Part shown: in pieces, positions 1 to 55,400 of the stretch | How positions within the stretch are numbered: the first letter of the stretch is position 1 | Layout of the letters: each line of letters begins with the position of its first letter | IMG/VR virus record: IMGVR_UViG_3300031857_000136 | DNA length: 64,000 bases | Direction: 5' to 3' (one strand) | Source: a virus | The notes under the pieces: model-generated | Database searches by the model: none | Told to the model about the DNA's origin: nothing | What the model saw: only the letters and a program-made list of their open reading frames with translations | Translations under genes and position numbers: made by a program

Positions 1-3000
1 AACCTACAAAGTCGCCAATAACAAAGTTATTAGCCATAAATGTACAAGCGTTATTATTAGTTAACCCACAACCAAATACAGCTGAATAATCCGCATTAGT
101 AACGTTATTACTACCACCTAATACAGATGAAGAATAACCACTAGCTGTATTACAACAACCACCTAATATAGTTGCATAAGGACCACCACAAATCTTATTA
201 CCAAAACCACCTACTATAGTTGAATAACCACTACTAGTGCAGTTACAATAACCACCAAGGATAGATGTAGCATAGCCACCACCAAAAATCCTATTACAAA
301 GACCTCCAACAATTGCCATCCCATCACCACCTGCTGTAATTAAGTTGCATTTTCCTCCTGTAACAGATGAGTACCAACCTCCTATACCATTATCAGTTCC
401 TCCTCCAATAAATGAACAAGCACCATTATTGTAATTATTACCTCCACCTACAACTATTGAATAAGTATTACCAGCATAGTTATTAGAACCACTACCAATA
501 AAGTTTTGACCACCAACTCCTGTAATATTATATTGACCACCAACGATTGCTGAACCATTACTATTAGTGTTAATTGTATTACAATAACCACCACTAACAG
601 TTGAACAACCTGAATTAAAGCAAATAGTATTATAGTAACCACCACCTATGGATGAATTGCTACTACAAATTGTGTTACTTGAACCACTACCAATAAATGA
701 ATTATAACCATATTTACATATCTTATTAAAATTACCACCTGCAATTGTTGCACAACTATCACGAATAACATTATAATAACCACCACTTATTGAACTACTA
801 CAAATTGTTTCAGAATCACCAAGATAATTCGAAATAGTATTATTGCCACCACCTGAAATAGTATTATAACTACCTGTACAAGTACAGCATATTTTATTAA
901 GCACTCCACCTCCTATAGCGTTACCAAATGCTGAACCATCTTCACAAGCAATAGTATTCATCCAACCACCTGCTATATTTGAACACGATGTACCTACGAA
1001 GTTACAGTCCCCACCTGCTATAGTTGAACCACCATAATATGGGTAAACAGGATTATTACATATGATATTATAGTTACCACCACCTATGAATGAAGCAGGT
1101 GCAAAAATTGAATTCTGCAAACCTCCACCAATTGTTGAGTAACCACCATAATAACCACTAGCACTAATTGTATTACATTTACCACCACTAACAGTAGAAC
1201 AGTGTCCACAAGCTGTATTATAATAGCCCCCACCAATAACTGCGTGCAAACCACAAGCATTATTGTGAGAACCACCTGCAACAACTGCTACACTATCAGC
1301 ATAGTTACGATAACCACCACTAACAGTTGGGAAAATATTCCCTCCTCCACAGTTACATTCCCCACCTCCAATAACTGTACCAAGTGAAAAAGCGATGTTA
1401 CACTGTCCTCCACTAATAGTTGAAAAGTTTCCACTAGCTGTATTGCAACATCCACTAAATACAGATGAATATGTTGCAGTGGCTGAGTTTCTATTACCAC
1501 CACCAACTATTGATAAATAACCACTGGCAGTATTAAATGATCCACCTACAACTACAGAAGCAGATATTCCTGATGATGTATTACATACACCTGTGAATAC
1601 AGCTCCACCATAGCTACTAACTGTGTTGCATAAACCGCCCACAATTACAGCTCTTCTTTCTGAAATATTGTTACATTGACCGCCAACAATTGTTGAATAG
1701 CATCCAGAAACAAGGTTTGATTGACCGCCTAAAGAAGCAGTGTAATCTCCACTAGCACCATTACTCACTCCACATCTTAATACAGAACAAGTACCAATAC
1801 CATTTACAAATATTGTAGGGGCTGTACTAGGACTATATCCTAAAGCTGCACATACGTTAGCTCCTGTTAAGTTTAAACATATGTTACCACTTGTTGTTAC
1901 AGGGGAACAACAAACATTAATGTTTGTAGCTACAATTCCTACAGATGTAACAGTACCTGTACATGTTGTATAACCGTTTGGATTAGATGAGTCGTATGGT
2001 GTATATCCTAATGCTGAGCAAACATTTGCTCCAGATAAGGAAATATTTAGTGTGCCAGATGATGTGATAGGACCGCCTGTTACAGAAATGTTAGTTCCTA
2101 TAGCATCTACACAGGTAACTGTACCTGTGCATCCTGTATGACTATTGAACGTGTTCCAGTCTGAAGAGGTTAATAAACCTGTGCAGAGTGATGAAGCAGT
2201 TGCAATATTTAATGTTATGTCTCCTGAAGATGTAATAGGAGAACTTCCTATTGTTACACCAGTGGTTGCAGATGTAAGACCTACACTAGTAACTGTACCA
2301 GTACAGCCAGTGTGGCTATTAAATGTATTCCAATCAGCAGCTGTAAGTAAACCTGTACACACTGATGATGCTGTAGAAATATCAACACCAAGTGTTCCAC
2401 TTGTTGTAACTGGACTACCAGATAAGAGAACACCAGTAGTAGAAGTACAAGTTGCAACGTTAGTTACAGTTCCTGTACAGCTAGTATGACTGTTAAAATG
2501 ATTCCAATCTGTTGATGAAAGATAACCATCACTAGCAGTTCCTGATTGTGAAATGGTTAAGTTTGGTGTTGTTCCACCGCTTGAAGCTAATGGAGCAGAT
2601 CCTGTAACAGATGTTACTGTTCCAACTGACCAGCTTCTATCAGCAGTGAGATCGTATGTTGTACCATTAATAGTTAACTGTCTTGTCTGATTGACAGGAG
2701 TATATCCTAAAGCAGGTTGTTTATCGTTAAACGTTGTCCAATCTGTAGCACTTAAATAGCCATCTGTAGTACAATTAGATTGTGAAATACCAAATACACC
2801 AGTGGTAGAGTTGTAAGTTAGAGGGGCTGTATGACCTACAGCAGCTCTCACCCTTGTATCTGTATAATATAAGTTACCACACTCAGTCACTTGACAAGAT
2901 AGATAGTCACCAGTTGTAGCTACAACAGCACCAAATCTACCAAATACACTAGTAACACCATCACTATTGTCTATCTTAACCCATCCTGTAGCAGATTTAA

Positions 3001-5112: not shown

Positions 5113-8100
5113 TTACCTCCTGCTTTCTTTCTGGATGGTAATATCAAATTCTTTAGCAAAGTCAGCATCCAATATACCACCATAGGTAAACAGAGATTTG
5201 GTTATAGGGAACATCTTACCAAGATTCTTTACAGGCTGAGCTTTCTTCCTCACCTGATCTGCAGATAGCTCAGGATTAGAAGTATCTAACCCTGTCATTT
5301 CCATAGTGACATGGCTAGTGAATCTTCCTATATCTGAGAAGATACCAATAGCTGGGAACATTGACCCACTAAGAATCTTCTGAAACTCAGCAGGATTGTA
5401 GAAGAATGAAAGTTCCCCAATAAACTTGTCTATCACCCTCTCTGTATATCTGTGGAAGTTCTTATCAGCTCTGTCATCATCGTCATCAGGAGCAGCAAAT
5501 CCAAGAGCAAACATAGCACCAAACATAGACATCAGAATACTAAGTTCCTTCACCTGGTTTCTTAGGTTGGTTCTAACCATATCTATGAACTCGTCTCTAT
5601 CCATCTCTAGAGGTTTACCTGTACGCTTTTGGTACTGTTCAGCAAACTCCTCATACATCTTATCCATTGCAGCAAGTCCTTTATCGTTGAGACTCAATAT
5701 GTTATAAATGTTAGATGACTTATCTCTAATAGATGTACCCAACACATAAGCAAAAAGTCTAATCCTTCCTATGTCATATTTCTCTCCTGTGGTAAGACCA
5801 TCTTCTCCAATTTCTACAGAGAAGTCATCACTCACCTTTCTAAACTCTCCAAAGCGTGTATCCACAAGCTTAGGAATCCAGTTCTTGAAGATCATCATAG
5901 ACTTAGTCCAAATGTTCATTCCCATACGGTTGAGGTCACTATCAGCTAGGTTACCTGTTGCATTTCTAGATATACGTCTAGTGAGGTTAGTAAGACGTTG
6001 AAGTTCTGTGACATTAGATAGGTCAAGACCAGGGATGACAAGTTTACCATTCTCTAACTTCTTAACAACATTGAGAGATCTAGTTTTCTTAAGCTCTTCT
6101 ATCTCTTCATCTATCTTAGAGGCTACCTCTTTATACTTAGAGGCTGAATCATAACGATCTTTATACTTCCTCTTTACAAACTCACGAATGCTCACAATCT
6201 TTCCATCCTCTACCATCATGTTATCTAGGAGAGTGAGGAATATAGATTTCTCAATATGTTGTTCTGGTTCTCTCATGAATACCATGAGGAAGTCAGAGAA
6301 GCTAGCTCTTGTCAGCTTTGTAAGACCAGACTTCTGTAGCTTTTCATATGTAGGATCATCTTTAAGAGGCATGAACGTATCAATTAATTGAAGGAACATG
6401 TCACGCTCTTCATCATTCTTAAATTTGTTTCCAACAAGTTTTACCTCGTTAGCCAACACCTCTCTAGCCTTGAAATAGTTTCCAGCCTGCGTAGCAATCT
6501 GAATGTTACCACCAAATGCGTTCACAGCACCAGATATAAACTCAAGTCCTAATGTTTTAAGTTGGAATGCTCTGTTTGCAGCATCCATAGTTTTTACTAG
6601 AGATGTAGCAGATGGATTCTCTTCAGGCTTAAACACTTCTCTACCAGCTACACTATTAACAGCACCTTTGATAAAGTTCATTACCTTACCTACAGCAAGT
6701 GGTGTATCACTATCAGATAGAGGGTATTTCTGTTCATATAATAATGCACGAAGAAAGTCATTAAATATCTTAGCGTTACCTTCACTTGTAGCATTTCCTT
6801 CAGACATAACCTGAGGTCTGTTGTTCTTATCATATACAACTTCACCGTTATTATCTGTAGAAAGATAGCCTTTGAAGGTTTCAATAGTTTTAACCAGTTG
6901 TAGTTGATCTTCCACCTCAGACAGATATTTGTACTTCTCCATATGGTTGATGTACAATATCATGTTCTTAAAGATGTCTTCACTTACATCAGAGTAATCG
7001 TTTACACCATCTTCACCACGTGTGAAATCATAAGTGTAGTATTTAGGAATAGCATTTTCTAGTTCACCAGTAAGCTCGTTCACCTGACCATATCCTACAT
7101 CATCTGCTTGAAGCTGTAAGTTTTTACCAAAGTTCATTACAGCAGACAAATCAAAGTCCCAAGCTAAACTTTCAGCCATTCCTTTTCTAACAAAAGGAAG
7201 GAATGTAGAAGCCACCTGATTACCAATATATCCAGAAGATTTAGCCTTCTGGTTCATTTCAGATATGAAGTTGTAGAGCTCTAGAAGTTCTGGATCATTT
7301 AGAAGATTTTTGTATTCTTCTGAATACCATTTAGTTAGAGGATGTCTCTTAATAATATAGTTGTTCCAACCAATAAAGTCTTTTCTATCAATGTTCCACT
7401 TACGTTGTTCTTCAAGAATTAAACGTTCCATTAGATCAACATCATCGTCATGTAGTTTCTTAATTCTTTCTATCTTCTTATCTAAGAGTTCTTTAGCTTC
7501 TTTTCTGTAGGCATCAACATCAATGTTGTCCATAATCCATCTCTTGTCACGGTAACCCTCAAGAGAGTTGTTATCCACTTCATCAAAGAACTTCTTGTCA
7601 AACTTGTATATTAGTTTATTAACTAATTTATCCTTACTATCTTTTTGATAGATTTGTTGTACAAGAGCTCTAATATCTCCACCTCTGTCTATAAGCTTCT
7701 TACGAATAGCCATAAGTTTATCCACCTCACCAAGTGCTTCTCTAGATGCTCTACCTTTTGCATTTGTTACAAGTTTGTAAAGCACTTGCAGAGATGCCAT
7801 AGGTAATTCAGATATACCTCTGAAGGTAGCAGATAGTCCTTTTACCACAGCTTCAGGACTCAACAATCCTTTAACAAGATTCTTCTGTCCAATAAACTTA
7901 TCAGCAAACTCACCAGATACATTTCTAATTTGTTCTGCAGAAAGACGGATTTCTCTAGCCTCATCACTGATGTTCTTGAGAAGCTCCTTTCTCATAGCTA
8001 TATCATCCTGAGCTTCCTCAGTAGTAGCACCTTTCTCCATGTCTTTGTTGTAGATGAGCTCACCAATCAAGTCATCTATTCTACCAAATACATCTGCAAA

Positions 8101-19700: not shown

Positions 19701-22700
19701 CTGTTTGTTCTGAAGTTTAACCAGTCCATTAGGAGTTTCAAGTAGCACGGTTCCTACAGGAACTCTGAATGTTACAGTGCCCTGCTCTACAATAGCAATA
19801 TTACTACCTTCAGTAGGAAGAGTTGGTATAGTTATCAATTGTCTACCCTCTAACTCATCAGTAGTGATAAGGTTAGCATCTTGTACAGATGTTCTGGTGT
19901 CATAGATAATCTTACCATCAGCATCTGTTACATTCTCAACTCTTCCAAAGGAAGCTTCAATCTCATGACGCTCTGATAGATCTGGATTACCAATTACTGA
20001 GTTACGCCATTCCTTGTATTGTTTTGTAACAGCATCTCTAACTTCCTGAGGAGTGTCTTTACGGAACATGCTTTCGTTGTTAAACTCAGCACCCCATTTC
20101 AGGTCACCATCAGGGAACACTTGGAATATAGCAGACTCTAAAGGATTAGTTCCATCAGGAACAGGTTGTCCGTCCACTCCTACAAGTTGAATGTCACCAT
20201 TCTCATCCTCTTGAACCATAACAAGGGCAATGATTTCATCCTTGTTGATGTCCTCATCAATTAATCCTGCTTCATCCATTCTCAACATATCTGTGAGACC
20301 AGGAACTAGTTGATCCTCATTCTTAGATGTAACATATACACCACGAATGTTCTTTCTATTATCAAACCTGTTTAGGTTAAATCCAAATGTGTTAGCTCGT
20401 ATTTGATGAGGTTTACCTCTTACGATACCCATGGTACCTCTAGGAATAATCTCATCAGACTTCTTAGCTGTAGGTTCGTATTCTTTATTAAACTCTACTG
20501 TTTGAACACCTGTATCAGCTGTACCAAGAGCTTCAGTTAATAGTTGCTCATTCTCCATCATCTTATTTTCCTCAGCTTTCATAGCTTGATATGTATCAGC
20601 TACAGCTTGGAACTTATCTAAGATGAGTTTCTTAGCATCATATTCTTGTTGAATATCAAGGAAGTCTTTGTATAAATCATTGATCTGGTCACTTAGCTTA
20701 TCAACTCTATTCTTACTTACAGAAATCTCCTTCTTAGTATCTGCTAATAGCACATAGTCAGCAATGAAATTCTTAAGTGTAGGTATATCAGCTAATGCAC
20801 CTCCTTCATTAATAATCTTTTCAAATTGGTCTTTGATATAGCTAGGATAGTCTTTATCAAATTTCTCAAATGACTCTTTTAATAGTTTAGTAAACTCTAC
20901 AATAGAATCTTCAATCTTTTGAATAAGATTATTTAAGCTCTTAATATTATCTTGAGTTTTATTACGTAACTCCTCAATGATGTTAACTTGGTTCTTTAAC
21001 TCTTTTAAGAAGTCTCCAGAGTTTTCTGGAAGCTCATCTAAGTTTTGTTTAAAGTCTTCAAAGTAAGATAGATTAAATTCTAATTCATCTCTATCTGCAG
21101 TTAATTCAGCTATTTCTTTTTCAAGAACTTCTTTAGTTGCATTTAAACTAGAAATAGATCTTAATGCTCTAGATAAGAGTTTGTTGAAAGGGCGAACAAT
21201 AGTGTTACCTGATAGGTCTTTCTTTTCTAACCCTTTATACTCTTCTAGGTCTTCATTAATTTTTTCTAATTGCTCTTTCTTAGCAGCAAGTTTTTTCTCT
21301 ATCTTTTCTAATCTTTCAGAATACTCAGTAGCCAATTCTGTAATGATTGCTAAACGATTGTCTCTATTTTTAGCTAAGGTTTCTTTCTGAATAGCAATCT
21401 CTTCAGCAGATGTAAACTCCTCTCTAGCAATCCTTTGCTCTTCATTTTCTATCTCACCAACCTTTTTAATACGAGCCTCTGTATATCCTTCCTGAGCAAC
21501 AAAGAATTCATTCTTCAGTGCCTTTCTTTTAATCTTTCCTTTATTATCTTTGTATACAAAGAATAACTTACCCTTATCATATTCAAGTCTTCCTTGTTTT
21601 TTACCACCAAACTTCTCTCCAAAGTTGTATTCAAAGATTTCGTTTCTGTGGTTATAGAAGTATTTAGCTGTTTTATTAGCACGAACATCTGCCACCTTTC
21701 CAAGCTTATAGTCTTCAAGAACTTCTTTAGATACATCTCTAATCTGTCCTTTGTTATCTTTTATCTTGATGGTGCCATCTTCATTCTCACCAAGAATGGT
21801 GAGTTCAGAAACTTCTACAGGAACCTCTAAACCATCTTTATCATAGTCCACTTTTTTACCAACAAAGTATTCTGTACCAACCTCTAATTCTTTCTCACCA
21901 GTTTTGGTTTTCACCTTGATGGTTTCTCCTTTAGGAGTTTCAGTTTCTTCTATGTCAGTAGGAATAAACTCTTGGAACTTAACAGGTTCTTTCTTTATCT
22001 CATTGTATTCTTTCAAATAGCTGTCTCTACGAATAGCCATTTCAGCTACATCCTCAAGAGATTCAGCAATGTCTTCTTTCTGATCGTCAGTAAGATCTGT
22101 AATACTATTGATGTTGTCAATAGCATCATTGAAGCTATCTACATTACCATCAATGATATCTTTCATCACTTGATTGACATTAATACCAGCAGCAGTAAGT
22201 TTAGAAGTGAGGGCAGGTATACGTACATCATAGTCAGCCACTTTAGAAGCAGCATATACCATCTTGTCTATCACCTGTGGTGTATATAATAAATTACCAT
22301 TATCATCAACTTGTCCTCCATAACGTAAGTTAAGAGACTCATAAAGAGATAATGTGTTATTAGCTGTTTGTTCAAATTTACTAAGACGATCTAAGAATGC
22401 TGGTGCTGTATCTGTAGAAAGAGCTTTACCCTCAGCAACAAGCTGAGCAAAACCTTCTTCTGTACTAGCTAGAAATCTATAATCATTTATGTCAGCTTGT
22501 ACTAGATCAAATCTACCATATTTGATACGAGGAGACAAGTAGTTATTTACAAAGTCTGCCTCTCTATCTTTACTATTCAAAACATCACCTTTTCTTAAGA
22601 ATTGTTCTCTTTCCTGTTGTAGCACAGTGCCACGGTTTACAGAATCAATAGTTTCTCTTGTGAAGTCTGATAGTCTATACTTATTGAACTTTTGGATAGC

Positions 22701-24179
22701 GTCTGCTGTGTTTCTAGACTTCTCTCGTTGTTCTGCAAATGTACCTTTAGCTTGCATGATGGCTCCAGATAATCCACCAATCAATACATTCTCTATACCT
22801 TCATCTGTAGTTAGTGTTTCTATAAATCCCTCAGAAAGGCTATCAAGGAAGCTAGTAGGCTCATTGTTATCTTTCTTATTGTAATAATTCTGTACACCTT
22901 TACCAATAGCAAACTGAGCACCTTCTTCAAATGCTTCAGACGCAGAGAATGTATATGGTCTAATTTTATTAAGTGTACCAAGAATTTTATTAGCACGAGA
23001 AGGTTTAGCTATATACTTACCACCATCTTCAATAATATCTCTTGTTTCTCTTGCAAGACCATTCAATACAGATTTCTCCCCTTTGTATGTAGAGCCAAGT
23101 ATTTTTGGAAACTGAATATAGTTAGTAGCTGTTAATAAACCAACATTTAATAAGAAAGCAGAATTACCCACTTCTGAAGCTCTTACATTAATATCTTCTA
23201 ATGCTTGAGCATCAGGATATACACCATTGTTTGCAGCTACATACTCATCAATCAATTGATTTCTCTTTTCGTTAAGAGTTTGCAATGCTTCAAATGCAGC
23301 CTCACCAGTAGTAGAAAGACCAGCTACAACAGCTCTTCCTCCTGTATTCAATGCGTTATATGAAGTGATGAATCTGTCAGATAGAGATTTCACTTTACCA
23401 AATGTATCAGCCACCTTATTAGCAGAAGCAAGTCCTGCTTCTGTAGCAGCTAACACTTCAGCTTGTTTACCAATAGATACAAGACGAGAGATACCAGGAA
23501 GTGCACTGAGTGCTTTTATGCCAGCACTGTATACACCTCCTGAAAGAGCTGCACCAGCAGCAAAACCAAGATTCTTTATAATACCATTCCAAAGAAAGTT
23601 AGCAGTGAATAACTTATCTGGAGAATACCATCTAGCATTCTTCTCAACATCTGTGTAGTAGTTAGGAAGTAAGTTATTATCTAATTCTTTATTTAAGTTA
23701 TCTAATCCTCTATTTAAATCGTTATCATAGAATGAAGAGAAATTACCTGTAGATATCCAGTTACCTACACCGTTAACAAGACCCACTGTACCCTGTAAGA
23801 ATGTAGTGCCTGTAAGAGCAAGTCCTTTACCAACACTATTAACCATCTTCTCAGTCCAACCTTGTCCTTGAGCATATGCATCCTCATTATTGTAATCACC
23901 AGGTACAAATGCATTGAATCTAGGATTAGTAAGTTCTGATATAGAACGAGGAATAGAACCACCCTGTTGTCCTTTGTTAGATGCTCTAATAGAAGCATCT
24001 AATGCATCAAGTGCAGACACAGATGCATCACCACCAACACCTGGAGTGCTAAGTCCTCTAAATGGTATGTTAGGAAGAGGGTCTGGAATTCTAGTAGGTG
24101 TGTAATCACCAAACTGTTCTTCTAGAGCCATTCTATCAAGTAGAGGAAGTTCAGGAGAGTTTAATGGATTTTCTGCCAT
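10785..24179 (-). CDS. Giant 4464-aa protein. It is a candidate virion-packaged RNA polymerase / cargo fusion of crAss-like type.
   Basis: A single uninterrupted ORF. The motif GSDFDIDKLSVY (DFDID encoded at nt 14277..14291) resembles the universal RNAP beta-prime NADFDGD metal-binding loop. TVYHEVFHAVW at nt 18360..18374 is a zincin HExxH motif. Start and stop are coupled to the neighbouring gene through a TAATG overlap at 24179. Confidence 0.85.
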   Translation of the reverse strand: MAENPLNSPELPLLDRMALEEQFGDYTPTRIPDPLPNIPFRGLSTPGVGGDASVSALDALDASIRASNKGQQGGSIPRSISELTNPRFNAFVPGDYNNEDAYAQGQGWTEKMVNSVGKGLALTGTTFLQGTVGLVNGVGNWISTGNFSSFYDNDLNRGLDNLNKELDNNLLPNYYTDVEKNARWYSPDKLFTANFLWNGIIKNLGFAAGAALSGGVYSAGIKALSALPGISRLVSIGKQAEVLAATEAGLASANKVADTFGKVKSLSDRFITSYNALNTGGRAVVAGLSTTGEAAFEALQTLNEKRNQLIDEYVAANNGVYPDAQALEDINVRASEVGNSAFLLNVGLLTATNYIQFPKILGSTYKGEKSVLNGLARETRDIIEDGGKYIAKPSRANKILGTLNKIRPYTFSASEAFEEGAQFAIGKGVQNYYNKKDNNEPTSFLDSLSEGFIETLTTDEGIENVLIGGLSGAIMQAKGTFAEQREKSRNTADAIQKFNKYRLSDFTRETIDSVNRGTVLQQEREQFLRKGDVLNSKDREADFVNNYLSPRIKYGRFDLVQADINDYRFLASTEEGFAQLVAEGKALSTDTAPAFLDRLSKFEQTANNTLSLYESLNLRYGGQVDDNGNLLYTPQVIDKMVYAASKVADYDVRIPALTSKLTAAGINVNQVMKDIIDGNVDSFNDAIDNINSITDLTDDQKEDIAESLEDVAEMAIRRDSYLKEYNEIKKEPVKFQEFIPTDIEETETPKGETIKVKTKTGEKELEVGTEYFVGKKVDYDKDGLEVPVEVSELTILGENEDGTIKIKDNKGQIRDVSKEVLEDYKLGKVADVRANKTAKYFYNHRNEIFEYNFGEKFGGKKQGRLEYDKGKLFFVYKDNKGKIKRKALKNEFFVAQEGYTEARIKKVGEIENEEQRIAREEFTSAEEIAIQKETLAKNRDNRLAIITELATEYSERLEKIEKKLAAKKEQLEKINEDLEEYKGLEKKDLSGNTIVRPFNKLLSRALRSISSLNATKEVLEKEIAELTADRDELEFNLSYFEDFKQNLDELPENSGDFLKELKNQVNIIEELRNKTQDNIKSLNNLIQKIEDSIVEFTKLLKESFEKFDKDYPSYIKDQFEKIINEGGALADIPTLKNFIADYVLLADTKKEISVSKNRVDKLSDQINDLYKDFLDIQQEYDAKKLILDKFQAVADTYQAMKAEENKMMENEQLLTEALGTADTGVQTVEFNKEYEPTAKKSDEIIPRGTMGIVRGKPHQIRANTFGFNLNRFDNRKNIRGVYVTSKNEDQLVPGLTDMLRMDEAGLIDEDINKDEIIALVMVQEDENGDIQLVGVDGQPVPDGTNPLESAIFQVFPDGDLKWGAEFNNESMFRKDTPQEVRDAVTKQYKEWRNSVIGNPDLSERHEIEASFGRVENVTDADGKIIYDTRTSVQDANLITTDELEGRQLITIPTLPTEGSNIAIVEQGTVTFRVPVGTVLLETPNGLVKLQNKQHSTKEAETIYEAILQLAKNMLDPQVGIKDAKSERLLNWLKSTVYWGLPENQNKERKPAGYNSVFFEKDSETGKLMLTLSGKGKDFVFTPTALEENKDAIVLMLSNMYNNINNHFAKQLNEPYEEILSISESGEITSRIWKNYQSYLLSNQTPDGKVRSGEELPLSTTVRPTVNNEDINRTNIYFFTTDTADNFVIPVVEKKKVVAPKVLTPGAPTTAAVLQPDTSALAQAQGTARTEPITTATPVTYKLDGNTPQTYTSPEGKKIMFTASANTTAENANTEIKILKGGDLDEVVAKIKAAGKDPGEILKKTVFNAIAPTLNEMKAMEADLTVTIPDDVEEVVVADAESKMGKPISQSVMDAVNRKISGLDNEALRVVIEKELKAFVPENWSQVETWLKSNFPNVPVYRVKNIIQATNGRQAWGMFKDGAIYIYENAEVGTVYHEVFHAVWRMFSDPTEQKAVLDEMKSRSGKFYDRASMNDVSYSEATEDQLEEKLAEEFRDYVQFKKIPAKPSKGRPYILKLFADMVTAIKEFFLGPQSNSKVEKMFSQIGQGYYKSHVPFQNSLAFAKEGVIDIEDAFADSDAALSLKDINDKERSDIIQHMTYLTLVDLIKTDESLFNIEKRNKKQVYAKLKDQVLETISQKIRGAQSLVSDGEFTQEEVNPLISNTLQLMQNVEDQWSTITERHEEYLKSYAIEFDENDNINLKDENNSGRETYQDATKIDNFKKSNSAVKILLATIPEVDDNGKLVPSSIGGAKLLPVSKTYISMMNNLHTSASVEDMLGRLRQMAVSDPNYRTLYRRITKRDWKDGGVDLSKVDTQHALQLISSIWNTFKKQNPDVRNVFILENGEVVVGEANLSSAAQQLRSEYINSIVFKAKEGKGFFTYDNVEKVFKGDPAKLKGVNLNSVTAMVDFLNRMGIPFTVSDVNKMTPEQYKVFKAAVAGIKESISRTEKIATFSGKALGMSGRLLELGLVKSAVSNPEFSSTYFNVSGERTQSFIGTNAASDLSDFLSKLERFNKESVGGTRYSYLLTDSFAKGSNLLSRMFTDAGTRKKDTEDLFKIGYVSGLVNEEKGKRKESSKLTYKDRLVQELNLNLSGYYLNLVPGDASIEWMIKMGNAISTASVGRGMGDINAIFKEYFKAELELVRENRSVAKGRKSDEMRFFKGILGDTLHSDVLAAKGTPEEVYNNFENKINGKLADFIQKDMIKLKQSLTQYGILKEGMLGFDFENINLPKNIGEKEVDKQLMALTANYMIANIEMHKLLYSDPYQYEDELKRIKSFNSPRQAIINNSPKMNAALSNVWNRGFSAGDIGFTKFTQDYFRSATHADVIGIIDLPNYTSFKETDGSGIINMKANRQFRIRAGNWNSEEERQYRYDVAWEKRDKNLPLLKEEVAILAAGNPGIQSAYTPLKPIVSGSKLAKNGTASSYNDVVLDKFALYPLSYRIMKEIDKDANAIKLYDKMQREDIDYVVFTSGRKVGAESPHETYKDGAFNDDPYKGVINVPFSIMSIQAEVPSKEDNLVTRGSQITKLITLDFMEAGVPVDFFSGQPFANRYKAWYKLSDAEKVEKSELYKEIKNNQDILEALIEEGYKNTLDKLGIKETITKDKDGNIVSRKFEITDFSKAAQTLRDEILKREVNDNISDALAGFLQGKVVLEATPAYQQVRNIIYSIADKQFISPKISGGMKVQIPSTMLESGVRNVKDGLYESDVLDFYVKDGKRVAEVMLGRWFDSPLSDEELLEYLNTTEEGQKILAGVGYRIPTQKQNSVDVIVIKKFLPKEFGDSVVVPAALVQKVGSDFDIDKLSVYLKNVYIKDGKPRLIPYFGIGEEAVNKFKELFDKGEFLTDEEMKELDRYIAEEQLLLQDIAEESKGGKLMSAIFGKLFSEEELTQEFTKGIPSKDQIISRLYKKSLENEYIQSMENLITHPKNYDNLIKPNSAESLKKLSEEIAEKTVGQSFDYKNVDNMLDRTFMSRLRHAFVTGKYAIGIAAVNQTNHSLNQRQPIYIDKSRLSRVSEEDRFWLGNADIRFDKYNAIEVDGKMVPTLSMITNKAGEYISDIIGMFIDGYVDISKGPWIMELGATPNVASTWLFLIKAGVPVKTVAYFMNQPIIRDYLRNIESAGYSWLFMDTFVKDMSEVYQQDMTEAELQERLAAFRIPGETVLKNNVGKTTADMTNSEKMDQYLMLKEFLKYAKMGEQMFHVTQGSNYDTSSFNDPYLVFKKQMQQIKAQNTIISSVDTLLANSFIGKLAETVNSVRDAFAQIIKSDSPKVRSVIQKVLLPYVETSDRDFVKLAQKAVNDLFDWAVQTDQKLNEMVKDILVNDGGVGREVAMFVNEVKSKGREHPLYGNHVIDIIEGIPSIRAAAGGPNNAKLNMGENKVYDQNNVIYAFRELRDYLKGENNPLYERIKLLAVLQSGLSPSPISFTNLLPYEDFEDVYNKTLSKLEGMSNLEDFYKLGVFQRNNWNNDDVVPYLKAALITTGAGRMHYNPSMKFLPDAVKQAMATNDIPPILTRSKMNREANSDYIVYTWEKQEDVLTKEELDKAIADRNVYKAIAAKKAEMRRAADYSYINKALFKKVYDNYNTALEHTAYDGKKYFVYKAINAWGDSFRANEFWATDHKSVLENGFMKVEDVDNNVIISKFLDGSKVKTKPTPSGMITADVKTEYPGKPEFNKLPSKSAKQNMTYAGIGSRQTPPAVLKQMTEVARELERKGYTLNTGVTFRGNKEGADKAFDDGTNKKNLFSPENQGSRPREQAIAKEMHPNPNALSPGALKLMARNTNQVFGDNLNKPVDFVLFYAKETKGVRPEGGTGQAVEMARLKGIPTINMADANWREQLNNALSSTPTEVKGIAMTSPNVEKIKAGKKTTTTRSQREFENIGIPVGQSATVNFGGQNFTVTNRGLLSIQEAGGKEAMLKSEGYATVNDLLYQQTKDWMNGKGKLYVYDISPTTENDNLNFKKGPCK

Positions 24180-45672: not shown

Positions 45673-45704
45673 TAAAGGTACGAACTAATTTTGACATTTA
45701 CAAA
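45673..45704 (-). promoter_or_regulatory. Bacteroidetes-type promoter for the operon starting with the metallophosphoesterase gene.
   Basis: The minus strand reads TTTG-N20-TACCTTTA, with about 28 nt to the ATG at 45644. Confidence 0.5.
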
Positions 45705-51895: not shown

Positions 51896-53449
51896 TTAGA
51901 ATTGTGGTATTTCTTCGATTAATACTGTACGTGATAAATCTTCAATGAATACATCACAACGGTCTTTCATCCAAATCTCATAACCAGGGAATTTGTTCGC
52001 AGAACTCATACCTTGAGACTTAGCAAAACCTAAGTGGTGACGAGTTCCATCGATATAACCCCAAGTCATTGAAGGAGCACCCTTCATACGTACTTCACGG
52101 ATGTTGTTTACCATTGAACCATCGCTCATTGGAGATACATCAAACACCATGAATACAGGAGTAGATTTTTTGTTCTGACCGAATTCTAAGTTAGTTTGAG
52201 GAAGGTCTAATTCTTTTAAGTGAATTAGTTCAACACGACCTGTTTCACGTGTAACCATTGCATCGAATGCAAAGTTGTAAGTGATGTGTTGACCTTCTCC
52301 TTGCATGTAGCGATTACCAGAATCAGCCATGAAAGTTAAACCAGAATTAAGTGCATCATTTTTAAGAGCTTGTTGGAACACATCGAAACCAGCTTCGTTA
52401 GTGTACATTTTAACTCTACGATCCTTAACATCAACACGTCTGTAGAATAAGTCACCAAACACTGAACGAATCAAGTTTGCAGTGAACTCACCACGGTTGT
52501 ATTGTACTAAGTTACCGTTATTACGCATTCTGTGGTATACACCAGCAGATGTACGCTTTAATTCTTGCTTAGAACCATTAGTCTTCACGGTACCAGGCTT
52601 AGCCCAGATCATACGCTTAACTTTTAATTCTAACATAGACTTACGCATCCAGAACTCAATAAATGGTTCCCATTTAACATCGTTACGAGTTAAAGGTAAT
52701 TGGTTACGTCTTTGTGGAGCATATACTAAGATGTCAAGAGGCTTACCAGAAGCATCACGCATCATTTTGTCATCAGCCCACTCAGTGATCTTGTGCTCAT
52801 AACCATATGCAGAACCTAAAGATTCAAACATAGTGATTTGCTCACCTAAACGAGGAAGACCTAATAAGTCTTGATCGAATTCACCGATAGCAGCATCAAC
52901 TAATTCAAGTTCAATACCAGTCTGTAAGAAAGTAGAACTTACGTAATCTACTTGAGGGTTGTCAGTCACAAGAGTGAAGGTGTACAAAAAGCCCATATTC
53001 CAAGGAATAGGATCTTTGATCACGTAGAAACGAGGACCATACTGACGAGTACCTACAGAAACAATTGCATTCTTAGAGAACTCATTAGTGTCAATTACAA
53101 GAGAAAACTCTTGACCATCGATACCTGGCTTATCTAGAGCTAGAGTGCTATCAGGAATATCAATGATTTTAGGGAATTTGTAAGGAACTTGTACTTGCCA
53201 CTTCCAAGCATCACTGTTGTTATCGATATAGTAAGGAGTGCTCTTGTTAATCATATCCAAGAAATCGTTACTGTAAAGAGAACTCTGAGTGTACAAACTG
53301 ATAATCTTCTTATCATAATCTGCTGGCTCAGTCGAGTGAAAACTCTCCAAGTGGTTTGCATCTGTCAACTTACCTACTGCACGCTTGTCCATAGAAGCAA
53401 CACGAGCATACGTAAAGCCAGTTAAACCTGGAATTGTTTGAATTGCCAT
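51896..53449 (-). CDS. 517-aa probable major capsid protein.
   Basis: Its position directly after the scaffold-like gene, its size and the strong RNA structure right after it fit a capsid protein. The N-terminal GFTYARVAS motif is shared with a cargo protein. Identity is positional; no fold-level evidence is available. Confidence 0.55.
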   Translation of the reverse strand: MAIQTIPGLTGFTYARVASMDKRAVGKLTDANHLESFHSTEPADYDKKIISLYTQSSLYSNDFLDMINKSTPYYIDNNSDAWKWQVQVPYKFPKIIDIPDSTLALDKPGIDGQEFSLVIDTNEFSKNAIVSVGTRQYGPRFYVIKDPIPWNMGFLYTFTLVTDNPQVDYVSSTFLQTGIELELVDAAIGEFDQDLLGLPRLGEQITMFESLGSAYGYEHKITEWADDKMMRDASGKPLDILVYAPQRRNQLPLTRNDVKWEPFIEFWMRKSMLELKVKRMIWAKPGTVKTNGSKQELKRTSAGVYHRMRNNGNLVQYNRGEFTANLIRSVFGDLFYRRVDVKDRRVKMYTNEAGFDVFQQALKNDALNSGLTFMADSGNRYMQGEGQHITYNFAFDAMVTRETGRVELIHLKELDLPQTNLEFGQNKKSTPVFMVFDVSPMSDGSMVNNIREVRMKGAPSMTWGYIDGTRHHLGFAKSQGMSSANKFPGYEIWMKDRCDVFIEDLSRTVLIEEIPQF

Positions 53450-53483: not shown

Positions 53484-54746
53484 TTATTGAAACCATGAAG
53501 TTGTAGGCTTGGGCTTATTTCCTGTTTTTGTAGAACTTTTGCTAACTTGTCTAGCAACTTCACCAAACAATTCATTTGACTTCTTGGTGATACCAGTCTT
53601 TTGTATTGTAGATAATGTAGGATCCTTTTCTAAAATCTTTAATAAAAGTCCAATCTTAACCTTTGTTGCATGGTTTTCTGGACGCTTAAGTTCTAGAATA
53701 GTGCGATCAAAATCTGTGAGAGTCTCACCAGATGCTGTCTTATACTTATCTACTAACAGGAAATCTTGTAGTTCACCAGCCAATTTAGGGTTCAGAGGAA
53801 TACCGTCAAACTCTTTTGTTTTTAGTTTTTCTTGTAATACCGACTGAACGTTTTGATAGTATTGCTGTTTAACAGCAGCTTGCTGTTGTAATCTTCTTTC
53901 GTTTTCTTGCTCCATTTGTTGGAGCTTTGCTGCTTCTTTCTTAACCAACACTTTGTGGTGTTTAGTAGCAACAGTTTCCAAATCACCGTAATTCTTAAGT
54001 CTTTCAACTTCTGTTGTAACATCCTCAGGATCAAATCCTTGATCAGAGAGTGCTTGTTTAATTACTGCAACTTGGTTAGATTCGTCTGCTAAGTCCATCT
54101 CAGCAAAACTCTTTATATTATTATAAGTACCGAAATACTCTTTTGGATCTACTCCTTTTACAAATATGGCATCAAATGCTTGTTGATAATCTTCTCCAAA
54201 TTGACCAATGAAGTTGTTTACCACCTCAATAGCTCCTTTCTTCTTTTCAGCTTGGAAACGCTCAAGGAATTCCTCAGGAGTTGAGATATTAACTTCTTCA
54301 TCATCTTCATCGTTGGTGAATACACCAAGTTTGAAAAGGTCTCTAGATAGAGATGTAAATGGACTAGATGGTTCATCACCTTCTGTTTCATTATCATCTT
54401 CTGTATCTGCAGGAGCTTTTGCTTTGGGAGTTGGAGCAGGAGAATCATCTTCATCATCATCCTCTTCATCATCTCCACCTAGTAAAAAGTCCTGTAAAGA
54501 TTTTTTATTATCTTCTTTATTTTCCTCATCATTCTCTTCTGAAGCAGCAGCAGGAGCTGGTGTCTTCTTTGCAGGTTTAGGTGCAGGAGCAGGTTCATCT
54601 TTAATATCTTGGATATCATCAGGATTGGTAGTAGAAGTCTCAGGAGCAAATAAGTCACTTAAAAGCTCTTGGTTTCCCATGCCCATTTCCATAGTATCTT
54701 GAATACTAAAGTTTCCCATTGACGGGTTGTCTAGATTTTCAGCCAT
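53484..54746 (-). CDS. 420-aa acidic scaffold-like protein (E/D runs and PAPAPKPAKKTPAPAAAS, with a helical Q/K-rich C-terminus).
   Basis: Composition and position between portal/SPFH and the capsid gene. The antisense Ser-rich ORF 54208..54702 is an artefact. Confidence 0.55.
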   Translation of the reverse strand: MAENLDNPSMGNFSIQDTMEMGMGNQELLSDLFAPETSTTNPDDIQDIKDEPAPAPKPAKKTPAPAAASEENDEENKEDNKKSLQDFLLGGDDEEDDDEDDSPAPTPKAKAPADTEDDNETEGDEPSSPFTSLSRDLFKLGVFTNDEDDEEVNISTPEEFLERFQAEKKKGAIEVVNNFIGQFGEDYQQAFDAIFVKGVDPKEYFGTYNNIKSFAEMDLADESNQVAVIKQALSDQGFDPEDVTTEVERLKNYGDLETVATKHHKVLVKKEAAKLQQMEQENERRLQQQAAVKQQYYQNVQSVLQEKLKTKEFDGIPLNPKLAGELQDFLLVDKYKTASGETLTDFDRTILELKRPENHATKVKIGLLLKILEKDPTLSTIQKTGITKKSNELFGEVARQVSKSSTKTGNKPKPTTSWFQ

Positions 54747-54778: not shown

Positions 54779-54809
54779 TAAAAGTATATTATTATAAATT
54801 AATACCAAA
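54779..54809 (-). promoter_or_regulatory. Bacteroidetes-type promoter upstream of the scaffold-capsid unit.
   Basis: The minus strand reads TTTG-N19-TACTTTTA, about 33 nt before the ATG at 54746. Confidence 0.5.
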
Positions 54810-54867
54810 GAGGTAGTGCACTATAAGGCCCATTATTCACGATAATATAGCATTAATGTAATTCACT

Positions 54868-55398
54868 CTAATCAAGATTGTTTGTAATTGTGTCATTTAT
54901 TAATCTAAAGCTCTTGATTGGGGCTAGGTCAGTGAGCGTAACTTGTTGAATCTCAACACCCCATTTCCTAGCTTCAACCCTCACCTTCTTAGTTAATGTG
55001 TTATCAAGTTCTGCATCCGTACATTCTTCCAGAGACATAGACATGATTACGTTTTTTATGACACTTTGTGACATGTCAGCTATTGCATCTTGGGCATCAA
55101 ATACTTCTAACAGGAATGTTTTTACATCTGATATCTTGTATTTGATTACCCCCTTGACAACAATATTCTGTCTATCACTGGTATACAAAGATTGTGCTGG
55201 AAGGCTTAATGTTGTAACAACGACATGTTGGTCAATCACCTCATCTACAAATGGTATCTTTGGGTGGAACCCAGGTTTCAACACCTTTTTAAATTTACCA
55301 AATCTTAGAAGTACAGCCTCCTCGTAATCCCTAATAATAATACCAGGGAGTACGTCTGAGCCAAATTGTAACACAACGTCAATCAGCCTATCTAACAT
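54868..55398 (-). CDS. 176-aa SPFH/band-7 (stomatin/prohibitin-fold) protein lacking a TM anchor.
   Basis: The core reads YEEAVLLRFGKFKKVLKPGFHPKIPFVDEVIDQHVVVTTLSLPAQSLYTSDRQNIVVKGVIKYKISDV...KKVRVEARKWGVEIQQVTLTDLAP. This matches the SPFH pattern (RFGK..L.PG.H...PF.D.V.......L..P.Q...T.D...V.V...V.Y.I.D......WG..V..V.I.D). Confidence 0.8.
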   Translation of the reverse strand: MLDRLIDVVLQFGSDVLPGIIIRDYEEAVLLRFGKFKKVLKPGFHPKIPFVDEVIDQHVVVTTLSLPAQSLYTSDRQNIVVKGVIKYKISDVKTFLLEVFDAQDAIADMSQSVIKNVIMSMSLEECTDAELDNTLTKKVRVEARKWGVEIQQVTLTDLAPIKSFRLINDTITNNLD

Positions 55399-55400
55399 AA

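Follow-up and report, generated by a model that had tools for sequence, protein, structure and literature searches.

An exchangeable SPFH-domain gene between the portal and scaffold-like genes of crAss-like phages

The 64,000-nucleotide (nt) viral sequence IMGVR_UViG_3300031857_000136 from IMG/VR, referred to in its whole length as the window, covers the half of a crAss-like podovirus genome that carries the virion genes. Directly behind its portal gene lies a short gene for a protein with an SPFH (stomatin/prohibitin/HflK) domain, here termed mini-SPFH:

54868..55398, minus strand: mini-SPFH gene, an ATG-started open reading frame (ORF) running from 55398 to 54868; 176 amino acids (aa), 19.9 kDa, pI 5.3

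Comparison with near-identical phages identifies mini-SPFH as an optional, exchangeable accessory gene in a cassette-like variable site. The conserved head-assembly machinery does not include it, even though the original prediction, made without database searches, had seen it as occupying the place of the prohead protease. Our preferred reading, held at about even confidence, is that mini-SPFH is a functional, dispensable accessory factor that would sit at the cytoplasmic face of the host membrane and act on a host process.

Slot variation among close relatives

Portal relatives of the window number 472 in IMG/VR. The best 80 of these were fetched, with about 5 kb examined on either side in each, and the slot between the portal and the scaffold-like gene was readable in 79. 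Their portals are 81–97% and their major capsid proteins (MCPs) 94.6–100% identical to those of the window. Four states of the slot were found:

Window-type SPFH gene, 68–99% identical: 56 of 79 loci
Divergent SPFH gene, 175 aa, 30–32% identical: 3 of 79 loci
Two unrelated small ORFs, one of about 80 aa and acidic, one of about 84 aa with an HEHFH motif: 5 of 79 loci
Empty, with 63–177 nt from the portal to the scaffold-like gene: 15 of 79 loci

Among the contigs with an empty slot are IMGVR_UViG_3300042454_000021, 3300028571_000830, 3300032315_000647, 3300046787_000099 and 3300044712_000083. An SPFH gene of any type is missing from the slot in 20 of the 79 relatives. It is also missing in Leptolyngbya phage Lbo-JY46, so the conservation in related crAss-like head modules on which a head-assembly role would lean was not found. 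The four states are interspersed on a neighbour-joining (NJ) tree of the portal, and several independent events are therefore needed. Essentially the same capsid, portal and scaffold-like proteins occur with the SPFH gene, without it or with a swapped occupant, which fits poorly with a gene that head assembly cannot do without. Presence or absence and replacement between common flanks, as seen here in close relatives, is the behaviour of an accessory cassette. The layout is not that of a classical moron, as the gene follows the portal stop after a gap of 2 nt and no minus-strand terminator-like site was found next to it.

The two small ORFs were observed at loci L159 (positions 7589–8057), L170, L206, L216 and L228. 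The HEHFH-containing ORF of about 84 aa had no match among PDB sequences or in the phage database.

Where present, the SPFH gene is functional and under strong purifying selection. The ratio of nonsynonymous to synonymous substitution rates (dN/dS) relative to the window copy is 0.01 for the five closest pairs and 0.09 overall, compared with 0.08–0.09 for the portal and 0.14–0.23 for the scaffold-like gene. Between the two subclades of the lineage, identity is 85% for the MCP, 69% for the portal and 56% for the scaffold-like protein, but only about 30% for SPFH. Furthermore, the two SPFH types are not nearest relatives in the family tree, a crude NJ tree with long branches. Together, this disparity and the separate tree positions point to xenologous replacement, or to separate captures into one and the same site, and, with the low dN/dS within a type, to replacement rather than fast drift.

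Slot boundaries and transcription

The genes around the slot and the elements within it are as follows:

57986..60016, minus strand: terminase large subunit (TerL), 676 aa (phrog_6681, E = 4e-85)
55401..57986, minus strand: portal, 861 aa (Pfam P22_portal; phrog_6547, E = 3e-102)
55399..55400, minus strand: spacer of 2 nt from the portal stop (TAA) to the SPFH ATG, read from the sequence; left slot boundary
54842..54880, minus strand: conserved right flank of the slot, ...AACAATCTTGATTAGAG...TTAATGCTATATTAT (alignments of relatives in every slot state)
54780..54809, minus strand: promoter-like motif TTTG-N19-TAnnTTT (Bacteroidota type), upstream of the scaffold-like gene (pattern match; conserved in relatives)
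53484..54746, minus strand: scaffold-like protein, 420 aa (weak, consistent homology to pre-MCP genes; no Pfam family)
51896..53449, minus strand: MCP, 517 aa (Pfam Crass_capsid, E = 2e-27; phrog_11589)

The position given in the original prediction was correct: mini-SPFH starts 2 nt past the stop of a P22-type portal gene and ahead of the 420-aa gene, and portal–SPFH junctions in relatives are similarly tight. From the SPFH stop to the start of the 420-aa gene there are 121 nt, and the latter precedes the Crass_capsid MCP. The 420-aa protein is homologous to the protein whose gene immediately precedes that of the MCP in phiCrAss001 (gp31), cr10_1 and Lbo-JY46, and ‘scaffold’ is used here as a putative label. 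Past the MCP, the minus strand continues with the ring proteins R3/4, R2 and R1 and then a run of giant proteins.

The left boundary common to all four slot states is the portal stop codon. On the other side, the right flank (...TTGrTTAGAG...TTAATGCTATATTAT) is found with the window-type SPFH, the divergent SPFH, the other ORFs or nothing at all, and the SPFH ORF runs on into it and takes the TAG there as its stop codon. An alignment of 7 sequences shows a 14-nt core of TTAATGCTATATTAT, TAATGCTATATTAT, to be invariant, and each of the 6 loci checked with a divergent SPFH or other ORFs likewise contains the exact 13-mer AATGCTATATTAT. The TTAATGCTATATTAT element, at 54842–54856 (minus) in the window with equivalent sites in loci L156–L228, may be a regulatory or recombination site. 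For the stretch of about 18 nt in the empty slots, a ‘deletion scar’ was considered and rejected, since the same element follows the divergent SPFH and the unrelated ORFs. As the right flank is common to all states, it is a conserved flank, as compatible with gain of the gene as with its loss.

Across the window, the general pattern TTTG-N17-23-TAnnTTT occurs at chance level (15 found against 15.8 expected). Of its seven minus-strand matches, however, four lie immediately ahead of genes, in the few intergenic gaps of the window:

45674–45704, 54780–54809, 61870–61899 and 62209–62240, minus strand: promoter-like matches in gaps

These matches are hints of a Bacteroidota host and of operon boundaries. 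The motif at 54780..54809, whose promoter function we infer only from its pattern and conservation, follows the SPFH gene. Because of this motif and the 2-nt gap to the portal, SPFH would be the last gene of a TerL–portal transcription unit, and it is probably co-transcribed with TerL and the portal late in infection.

Protein identity and architecture

The SPFH assignment of the 176-aa ORF is solid and, as an annotation, routine. Pfam Band_7 (PF01145) matches residues 21–163 with E = 5.1e-27 (95.5 bits against a curated cut-off of 23.6), and PDB sequence matches include QmcA (1e-12), stomatin (1e-10) and HflK (9e-9). An AlphaFold2 model built from 71 diverse family members has a predicted local distance difference test (pLDDT) score of 94.4. 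Foldseek searches of the PDB with this model returned human stomatin, HflK, QmcA, prohibitin, erlin and flotillin (E from 1e-14 to 1e-8), with probability 1.00 and template modelling (TM) scores of 0.69–0.77 for stomatin, HflK, QmcA and prohibitin; major vault protein was a lower-ranked match (rank 50). The SPFH core named in the original prediction is confirmed by profile and fold alike. Orthology to HflK or HflC was rejected, as the NCBIfam equivalog cut-offs are far from reached (TIGR01933, 75.2 versus 159.4 bits; TIGR01932, 47.4 versus 134.4 bits). The exact window protein is already public in IMG under the automatic name ‘regulator of protease activity HflC’.

Two parts of the coding sequence can be told apart:

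55348..55398, minus strand: codons 1–17, conserved N-terminal amphipathic helix (AlphaFold2/DSSP, hydrophobic moment [muH], family alignment, QmcA alignment)
54919..55344, minus strand: codons 19–160, SPFH1/SPFH2 core (Pfam residues 21–163 and AlphaFold2 secondary structure)

In the model, strands at residues 19–89 are followed by helices at 92–146 and a last structured element, the strand at 148–159, after which residues 160–176 are coil with low pLDDT. No CC1/CC2 coiled coil is present in the model, where the chain ends directly after the SPFH core. Mini-SPFH also has no transmembrane helix (maximum Kyte–Doolittle 19-residue mean of 1.40; four of the first 20 residues are charged), and neither a signal peptide nor a lipobox cysteine was found in it. 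The absence of a membrane anchor, as originally predicted, therefore holds, with room left for peripheral binding through the amphipathic helix.

This helix, at residues 2–16, is strongly amphipathic and charged (DSSP helix, pLDDT 93, muH 0.64) and is kept across the 71 family representatives with the consensus MFDxLIDxL........P. Since QmcA residues 23–165 align with mini-SPFH residues 21–161, the helix takes the place of the QmcA transmembrane segment. Its conservation suggests that a protein described as ‘soluble’ may in fact be a peripheral membrane protein.

The mini-SPFH family and its genomic contexts

An exhaustive search of 1.84 billion cluster representatives placed the window protein in a large family: 4,929 of them matched at E ≤ 1e-3, and 855 still did so at E ≤ 1e-10. 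Nearly all of the best 150 matches are 165–190 aa long and align from residue 1 to about residue 170, and the family carries the N-terminal motif M-F/L-D-K/R-L-I-D/E-x-L...P. A DNA pattern for this motif was run against IMG/VR and against one genome each of 185,579 prokaryotic species. Family members accounted for 33 of 56 sites in IMG/VR and for 2 of 74 sites in the species genomes, both of the latter on Bacteroidota contigs from metagenome-assembled genomes (MAGs). In this motif-biased sample, the family is thus essentially viral.

Family members occur in several genomic settings. In the window lineage the order is portal–SPFH–scaffold–MCP. A second crAss-like clade has the order ring 2–ring 1–SPFH–muzzle homologue (1534 aa), with an SPFH protein 49% identical to that of the window and a stop/start base in common with the genes on both sides (loci L012–L014, L022, L055, L068 and L006). 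The 1749-aa protein of the window, a homologue of this 3′ neighbour, is probably the muzzle. In MW202733.1, a 45-kb podovirus from Manatee Spring, a mini-SPFH gene annotated ‘prohibitin-like protein’ (locus L232, 5130–5543) follows TerL after a 165-nt gap. In other phages, the neighbours include a Mom-like DNA-modification gene, a glycosyltransferase, an NlpC/P60 hydrolase and a metallophosphoesterase, as well as an RNase H-like exonuclease, a pyrimidine-dimer glycosylase and primase, UvrD and radical-SAM genes. Across 29 other contexts, a hydropathy scan found no conserved transmembrane or NfeD-like neighbour.

Several of these contexts have features of their own. In MW202733.1, mini-SPFH is followed by a 103-aa hypothetical gene and then by genes for an Ig-like domain protein and a transglutaminase-like protein. 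A recurrent block (L015, L016, L023, L027, L033, L036 and L046–L048) consists of mini-SPFH, three proteins of about 93 aa (C0, C4 and C1) and two convergent genes of about 165 and 280 aa. The block proteins have no significant PHROG or Pfam match, and the protein of about 280 aa has only sub-threshold matches to an unknown-function PHROG and to cysteine-rich DnaJ/BSD2-type Pfam domains. A 95-kb viral contig (L011) encodes at 7938–8804 a 288-aa full-length SPFH protein with a transmembrane helix, SPFH domain and coiled coil, along with a homologue of the window’s 416-aa protein. Anchored and mini SPFH proteins therefore both occur in viral contigs that have a virion-region gene in common with the window phage.

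A possible role at the host membrane

Structures of cellular SPFH cages (HflK/C–FtsH, QmcA–YbbJ, stomatin, prohibitin, flotillin and erlin) have been solved recently, and the effect of these cages on their clients is debated. For phages, the role of SPFH genes is described in the literature as still unclear, and a 2026 preprint offers only speculation about an SPFH domain in a gut crassvirus. Our literature search found no functional study of phage SPFH proteins, only annotations and speculation.

If mini-SPFH is a host-membrane accessory factor, it would be made late, as the last gene of the TerL–portal unit, and would stay in the cytoplasm because it has no signal peptide or other export signal. 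It could then dock on the inner face of the host membrane through its amphipathic helix and SPFH1 surface, and modulate a host membrane-associated process rather than the phage capsid. At its most specific, our guess is that mini-SPFH interferes with a host SPFH scaffold facing the cytoplasm, or with the client of that scaffold (an FtsH-type protease, for instance, or another membrane complex); mini-SPFH might join or cap the host assembly and would be unable to close the cage. The anti-host factor that the original prediction had listed among its options is compatible with this reading, with the target being conjecture on our part.

A more specific version, which we consider a long shot, casts mini-SPFH as an ‘incomplete subunit’. 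It would make lateral SPFH–SPFH contacts with host SPFH assemblies that face the cytoplasm, either of the QmcA or flotillin type or in the form of an FtsH-associated scaffold, and block cage closure late in infection. If true, such a subunit would release, trap or disable the client, for instance a membrane protease or a membrane-bound defence effector. It would also be the first case of a virus antagonising an SPFH microdomain, and this would explain a host-dependent gene that is repeatedly lost or swapped.

Several points weigh against a role at the host membrane. Membrane binding, the host target and the timing of expression are all inferred. An SPFH gene might lie elsewhere in the empty-slot genomes, of which about 5 kb per side was examined. 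In E. coli, the SPFH domains of HflK/C face the periplasm, whereas mini-SPFH is predicted to be cytoplasmic and could then not reach their cage, so interference with an FtsH/HflKC-like complex works only for cytoplasm-facing systems of the QmcA and flotillin types. PADLOC profiles of known anti-phage defence and counter-defence families gave no match to mini-SPFH at E ≤ 0.01, and the family therefore has no link to known defence systems. Finally, three independent podovirus lineages hold the gene in or beside packaging and structural operons, which fits an optional virion-associated role.

Alternative roles

Such a virion role, although unlikely in our estimate, is a serious rival. Mini-SPFH could decorate the capsid without being essential, serve as an accessory at the portal vertex or be a small cargo protein that is ejected, with the N-terminal helix as a docking segment by analogy with the head fibre gp21 of phiCrAss001. 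Two crAss-like clades carry the gene inside a block of virion genes (after the portal, or between ring 1 and the muzzle homologue), and in the 45-kb podovirus it comes next after TerL, beyond the 165-nt gap. In phiCrAss001, the gene behind the portal encodes a head fibre that is anchored through its 38 N-terminal residues, and the authors of the structural atlas note that uncharacterised proteins may take over the head-fibre role in other groups. Decoration proteins are typically dispensable and exchangeable, matching the presence/absence pattern, and major vault protein provides a case of an SPFH-like domain within a protein shell. However, the same family, with the same N-terminal helix, is found among replication, DNA-modification and repair genes in other phages. 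Mini-SPFH shows no similarity to gp21, no crassvirus virion protein appears among its Foldseek structural matches, and the virion proteins of phiCrAss001 described in the atlas passages covered include none with an SPFH domain. In the one phage proteome that bears on the question, an SPFH lipoprotein was retrieved 3 times, against 196–311 times for the two most-retrieved assembly proteins listed.

A function in lysis timing or superinfection exclusion is, in our view, rather improbable. A late, membrane-peripheral SPFH protein might stabilise or organise the inner membrane, and so delay holin triggering or keep the DNA of competing phages out. In its favour, the amphipathic helix is suggestive of membrane association, functions of this kind are as a rule accessory, the interval from the portal to gp31 in phiCrAss001 includes the lysis cassette gp27–gp30, and in one phage mini-SPFH comes directly after the NlpC/P60 cell-wall hydrolase. 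However, the link to lysis genes consists of this single locus and the positional analogy. Neither a holin nor an endolysin gene adjoins mini-SPFH, be it in the window or in the majority of the other contexts, and the search for conserved transmembrane neighbours found none.

A role as capsid assembly chaperone or protease cofactor in the prohead-protease position, as first predicted, is scarcely credible and largely refuted by the relatives with an empty slot. In HK97-type phages the gene order is portal–protease–scaffold–MCP, and a gene between the portal and a scaffold-like gene fits that order. The window was rightly predicted to have no recognisable protease in its head module: among its 32 proteins scanned, none has a protease or NfeD Pfam domain, and precomputed Pfam matches over about 10 kb beyond the window end contain none either. 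This null result also covers the NfeD-like partner that had been proposed as a search target. Cellular SPFH proteins do pair with NfeD and FtsH proteases, as seen in PDB entries.

Against this, the slot holds no SPFH gene in the 20 relatives described above, all with MCPs at least 94.6% and portals at least 81% identical to those of the window, and mini-SPFH itself matches no protease family. A gene that is not conserved with the capsid genes, and whose family also occurs in unrelated contexts outside head modules, suits neither a chaperone nor a cofactor. The portal, moreover, is of the P22 type, and phages of this type do without a protease in assembly, using a scaffold that is recycled. The text of the phiCrAss001 structural atlas nowhere mentions a scaffold, a maturation protease or proteolytic cleavage, and together with the P22-like portal this silence suggests that a missing protease is the norm here. 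The interval from the portal to the pre-MCP gene is a variable region in crassviruses. For example, the interval from portal gp20 to gp31 in phiCrAss001 holds the head fibre gp21, tail fibres and the lysis genes, that of cr10_1 holds a 432-aa and a 75-aa gene, and in Lbo-JY46, the closest cultured relative, the portal is directly followed by the scaffold-like gene. A prohead-protease surrogate was rejected on these grounds: the empty-slot relatives, the variable interval, the P22-type portal and the other contexts. The position of a gene in a head module is therefore no evidence of a head-assembly function, which serves as a warning for annotation.

Two HExxH-containing ORFs in post-portal positions could be taken as support for a protease, namely the ORF of about 84 aa in the slot of some relatives and the cr10_1 gene right after the portal (NC_055875.1, L005 9646–10944), which is annotated ‘peptidase’ and has an HEISH motif. 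However, neither has a detectable peptidase-family match, the cr10_1 gene in Pfam and the ORF of about 84 aa among PDB sequences and in the phage database. The cr10_1 gene product has a sub-threshold Pfam match at its N-terminus to an atypical Rib (Ig-like) domain (23.7 versus 27 bits, E = 4e-5). A further motif of this kind lies in the 4464-aa ORF of the window (10785–24179, minus), where a zincin-like HEVFH occurs at residue 1936 in a hydrophobic context. This ORF has no Pfam match at all, its HEVFH region has no PDB sequence match, and no significant similarity was found between that region and the cr10_1 post-portal protein. The HExxH leads were dropped, with no peptidase Pfam match for either the cr10_1 gene or the 4464-aa protein.

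Other features of the window

No close relative of the window phage was found among deposited phage genomes, and the nearest cultured phage by portal similarity is Lbo-JY46, at 29.5%. The lineage is abundant in metagenomes, with 691 close homologues of the ORF, including some on contigs of 100–115 kb. Upstream of TerL, at 61151–61501 (minus), the window encodes an HU/IHF-like DNA-binding protein, an arrangement also seen in other crassviruses. Near 62.3–62.7 kb the coding strand switches, and divergent transcription units meet at about 62.5 kb; no tRNA genes were found in the window. Towards its far end, very small ORFs (63–72 aa) at 454–645, 1084–1284 and 1288–1506 (minus) have 1–3 transmembrane-like hydrophobic segments and could encode holin-like or other membrane proteins. 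The 1888-aa protein at 5113–10779 (minus) has an ART-PolyVal ADP-ribosyltransferase domain and a weak PD-(D/E)XK nuclease match, and resembles the ‘polyvalent proteins’ presumed to be delivered into host cells.

Comparison with known systems

With the prohead proteases, whether HK97 gp4/S78, ClpP/S49-like or herpesvirus-type S80, mini-SPFH has in common only its position between the portal and the scaffold or MCP gene. It has no protease fold or motif and is not conserved among relatives with near-identical capsid genes. The likeness to phiCrAss001 gp21 goes somewhat further: both are small proteins encoded behind the portal with an N-terminal docking or potential docking segment, and gp21 is likewise absent from many crassvirus groups. 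However, gp21 is a proven virion component of a different fold, and without sequence similarity the likeness is positional only.

Among viral proteins, a close counterpart is UniProt A0A6J7WFI0 (‘HflK protein’, 173 aa, uncultured Caudovirales phage), which belongs to the same family, has the same architecture and matches with a Foldseek TM of 0.85 over 173/173 residues. This protein and the IMG ‘regulator of protease activity HflC’ proteins are of the same kind as mini-SPFH, and their names are automatic COG transfers. Full-length viral SPFH or ‘Band-7-like membrane’ proteins are known from the T4-like phages RB43, 44RR and Aeh1, from Schitoviridae (a lipoprotein, phrog_200), from the Streptomyces phage StarPlatinum and the Rhizobium phage Pasto, and from L011; SPFH domains also occur in giant viruses. 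These proteins are mostly about 260–510 aa long, with a few giant-virus matches shorter or longer, in contrast to the 176 aa of mini-SPFH, and several are annotated as membrane proteins or lipoproteins, whereas mini-SPFH has no anchor or coiled-coil tail.

Of the cellular proteins, QmcA is the best PDB sequence match, but it has a transmembrane helix where mini-SPFH has an amphipathic one. In QmcA–YbbJ and the archaeal stomatin–NfeD pairs the partner gene is adjacent; mini-SPFH has no such neighbour in the window or in the 29 contexts. HflK/HflC, stomatin, prohibitin, erlin and flotillin have the same SPFH1/SPFH2 fold and Band_7 family (TM about 0.7–0.77), and the RFGK-type motif at the start of the canonical domain is retained in mini-SPFH. 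Canonical SPFH proteins, however, are about 250–420 aa long, and the cage-forming ones carry an N-terminal anchor (a transmembrane helix, hairpin or lipid), a CC1/CC2 coiled coil and a C-terminal cap. Mini-SPFH has none of these, and so cannot form a 12- to 44-mer cage in the known way.

Two things are mildly new here: that mini-SPFH proteins make up a large and essentially viral group of one architecture, and that the gene behaves as a cassette at the portal–scaffold junction. The junction is a clean example of a cassette site set within a conserved structural operon, here in a crAss-like lineage abundant in the environment, and its natural variants with and without the gene allow direct comparison. 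The family itself amounts to a natural truncation experiment on the SPFH proteins of cells, and could show what a bare SPFH domain binds.

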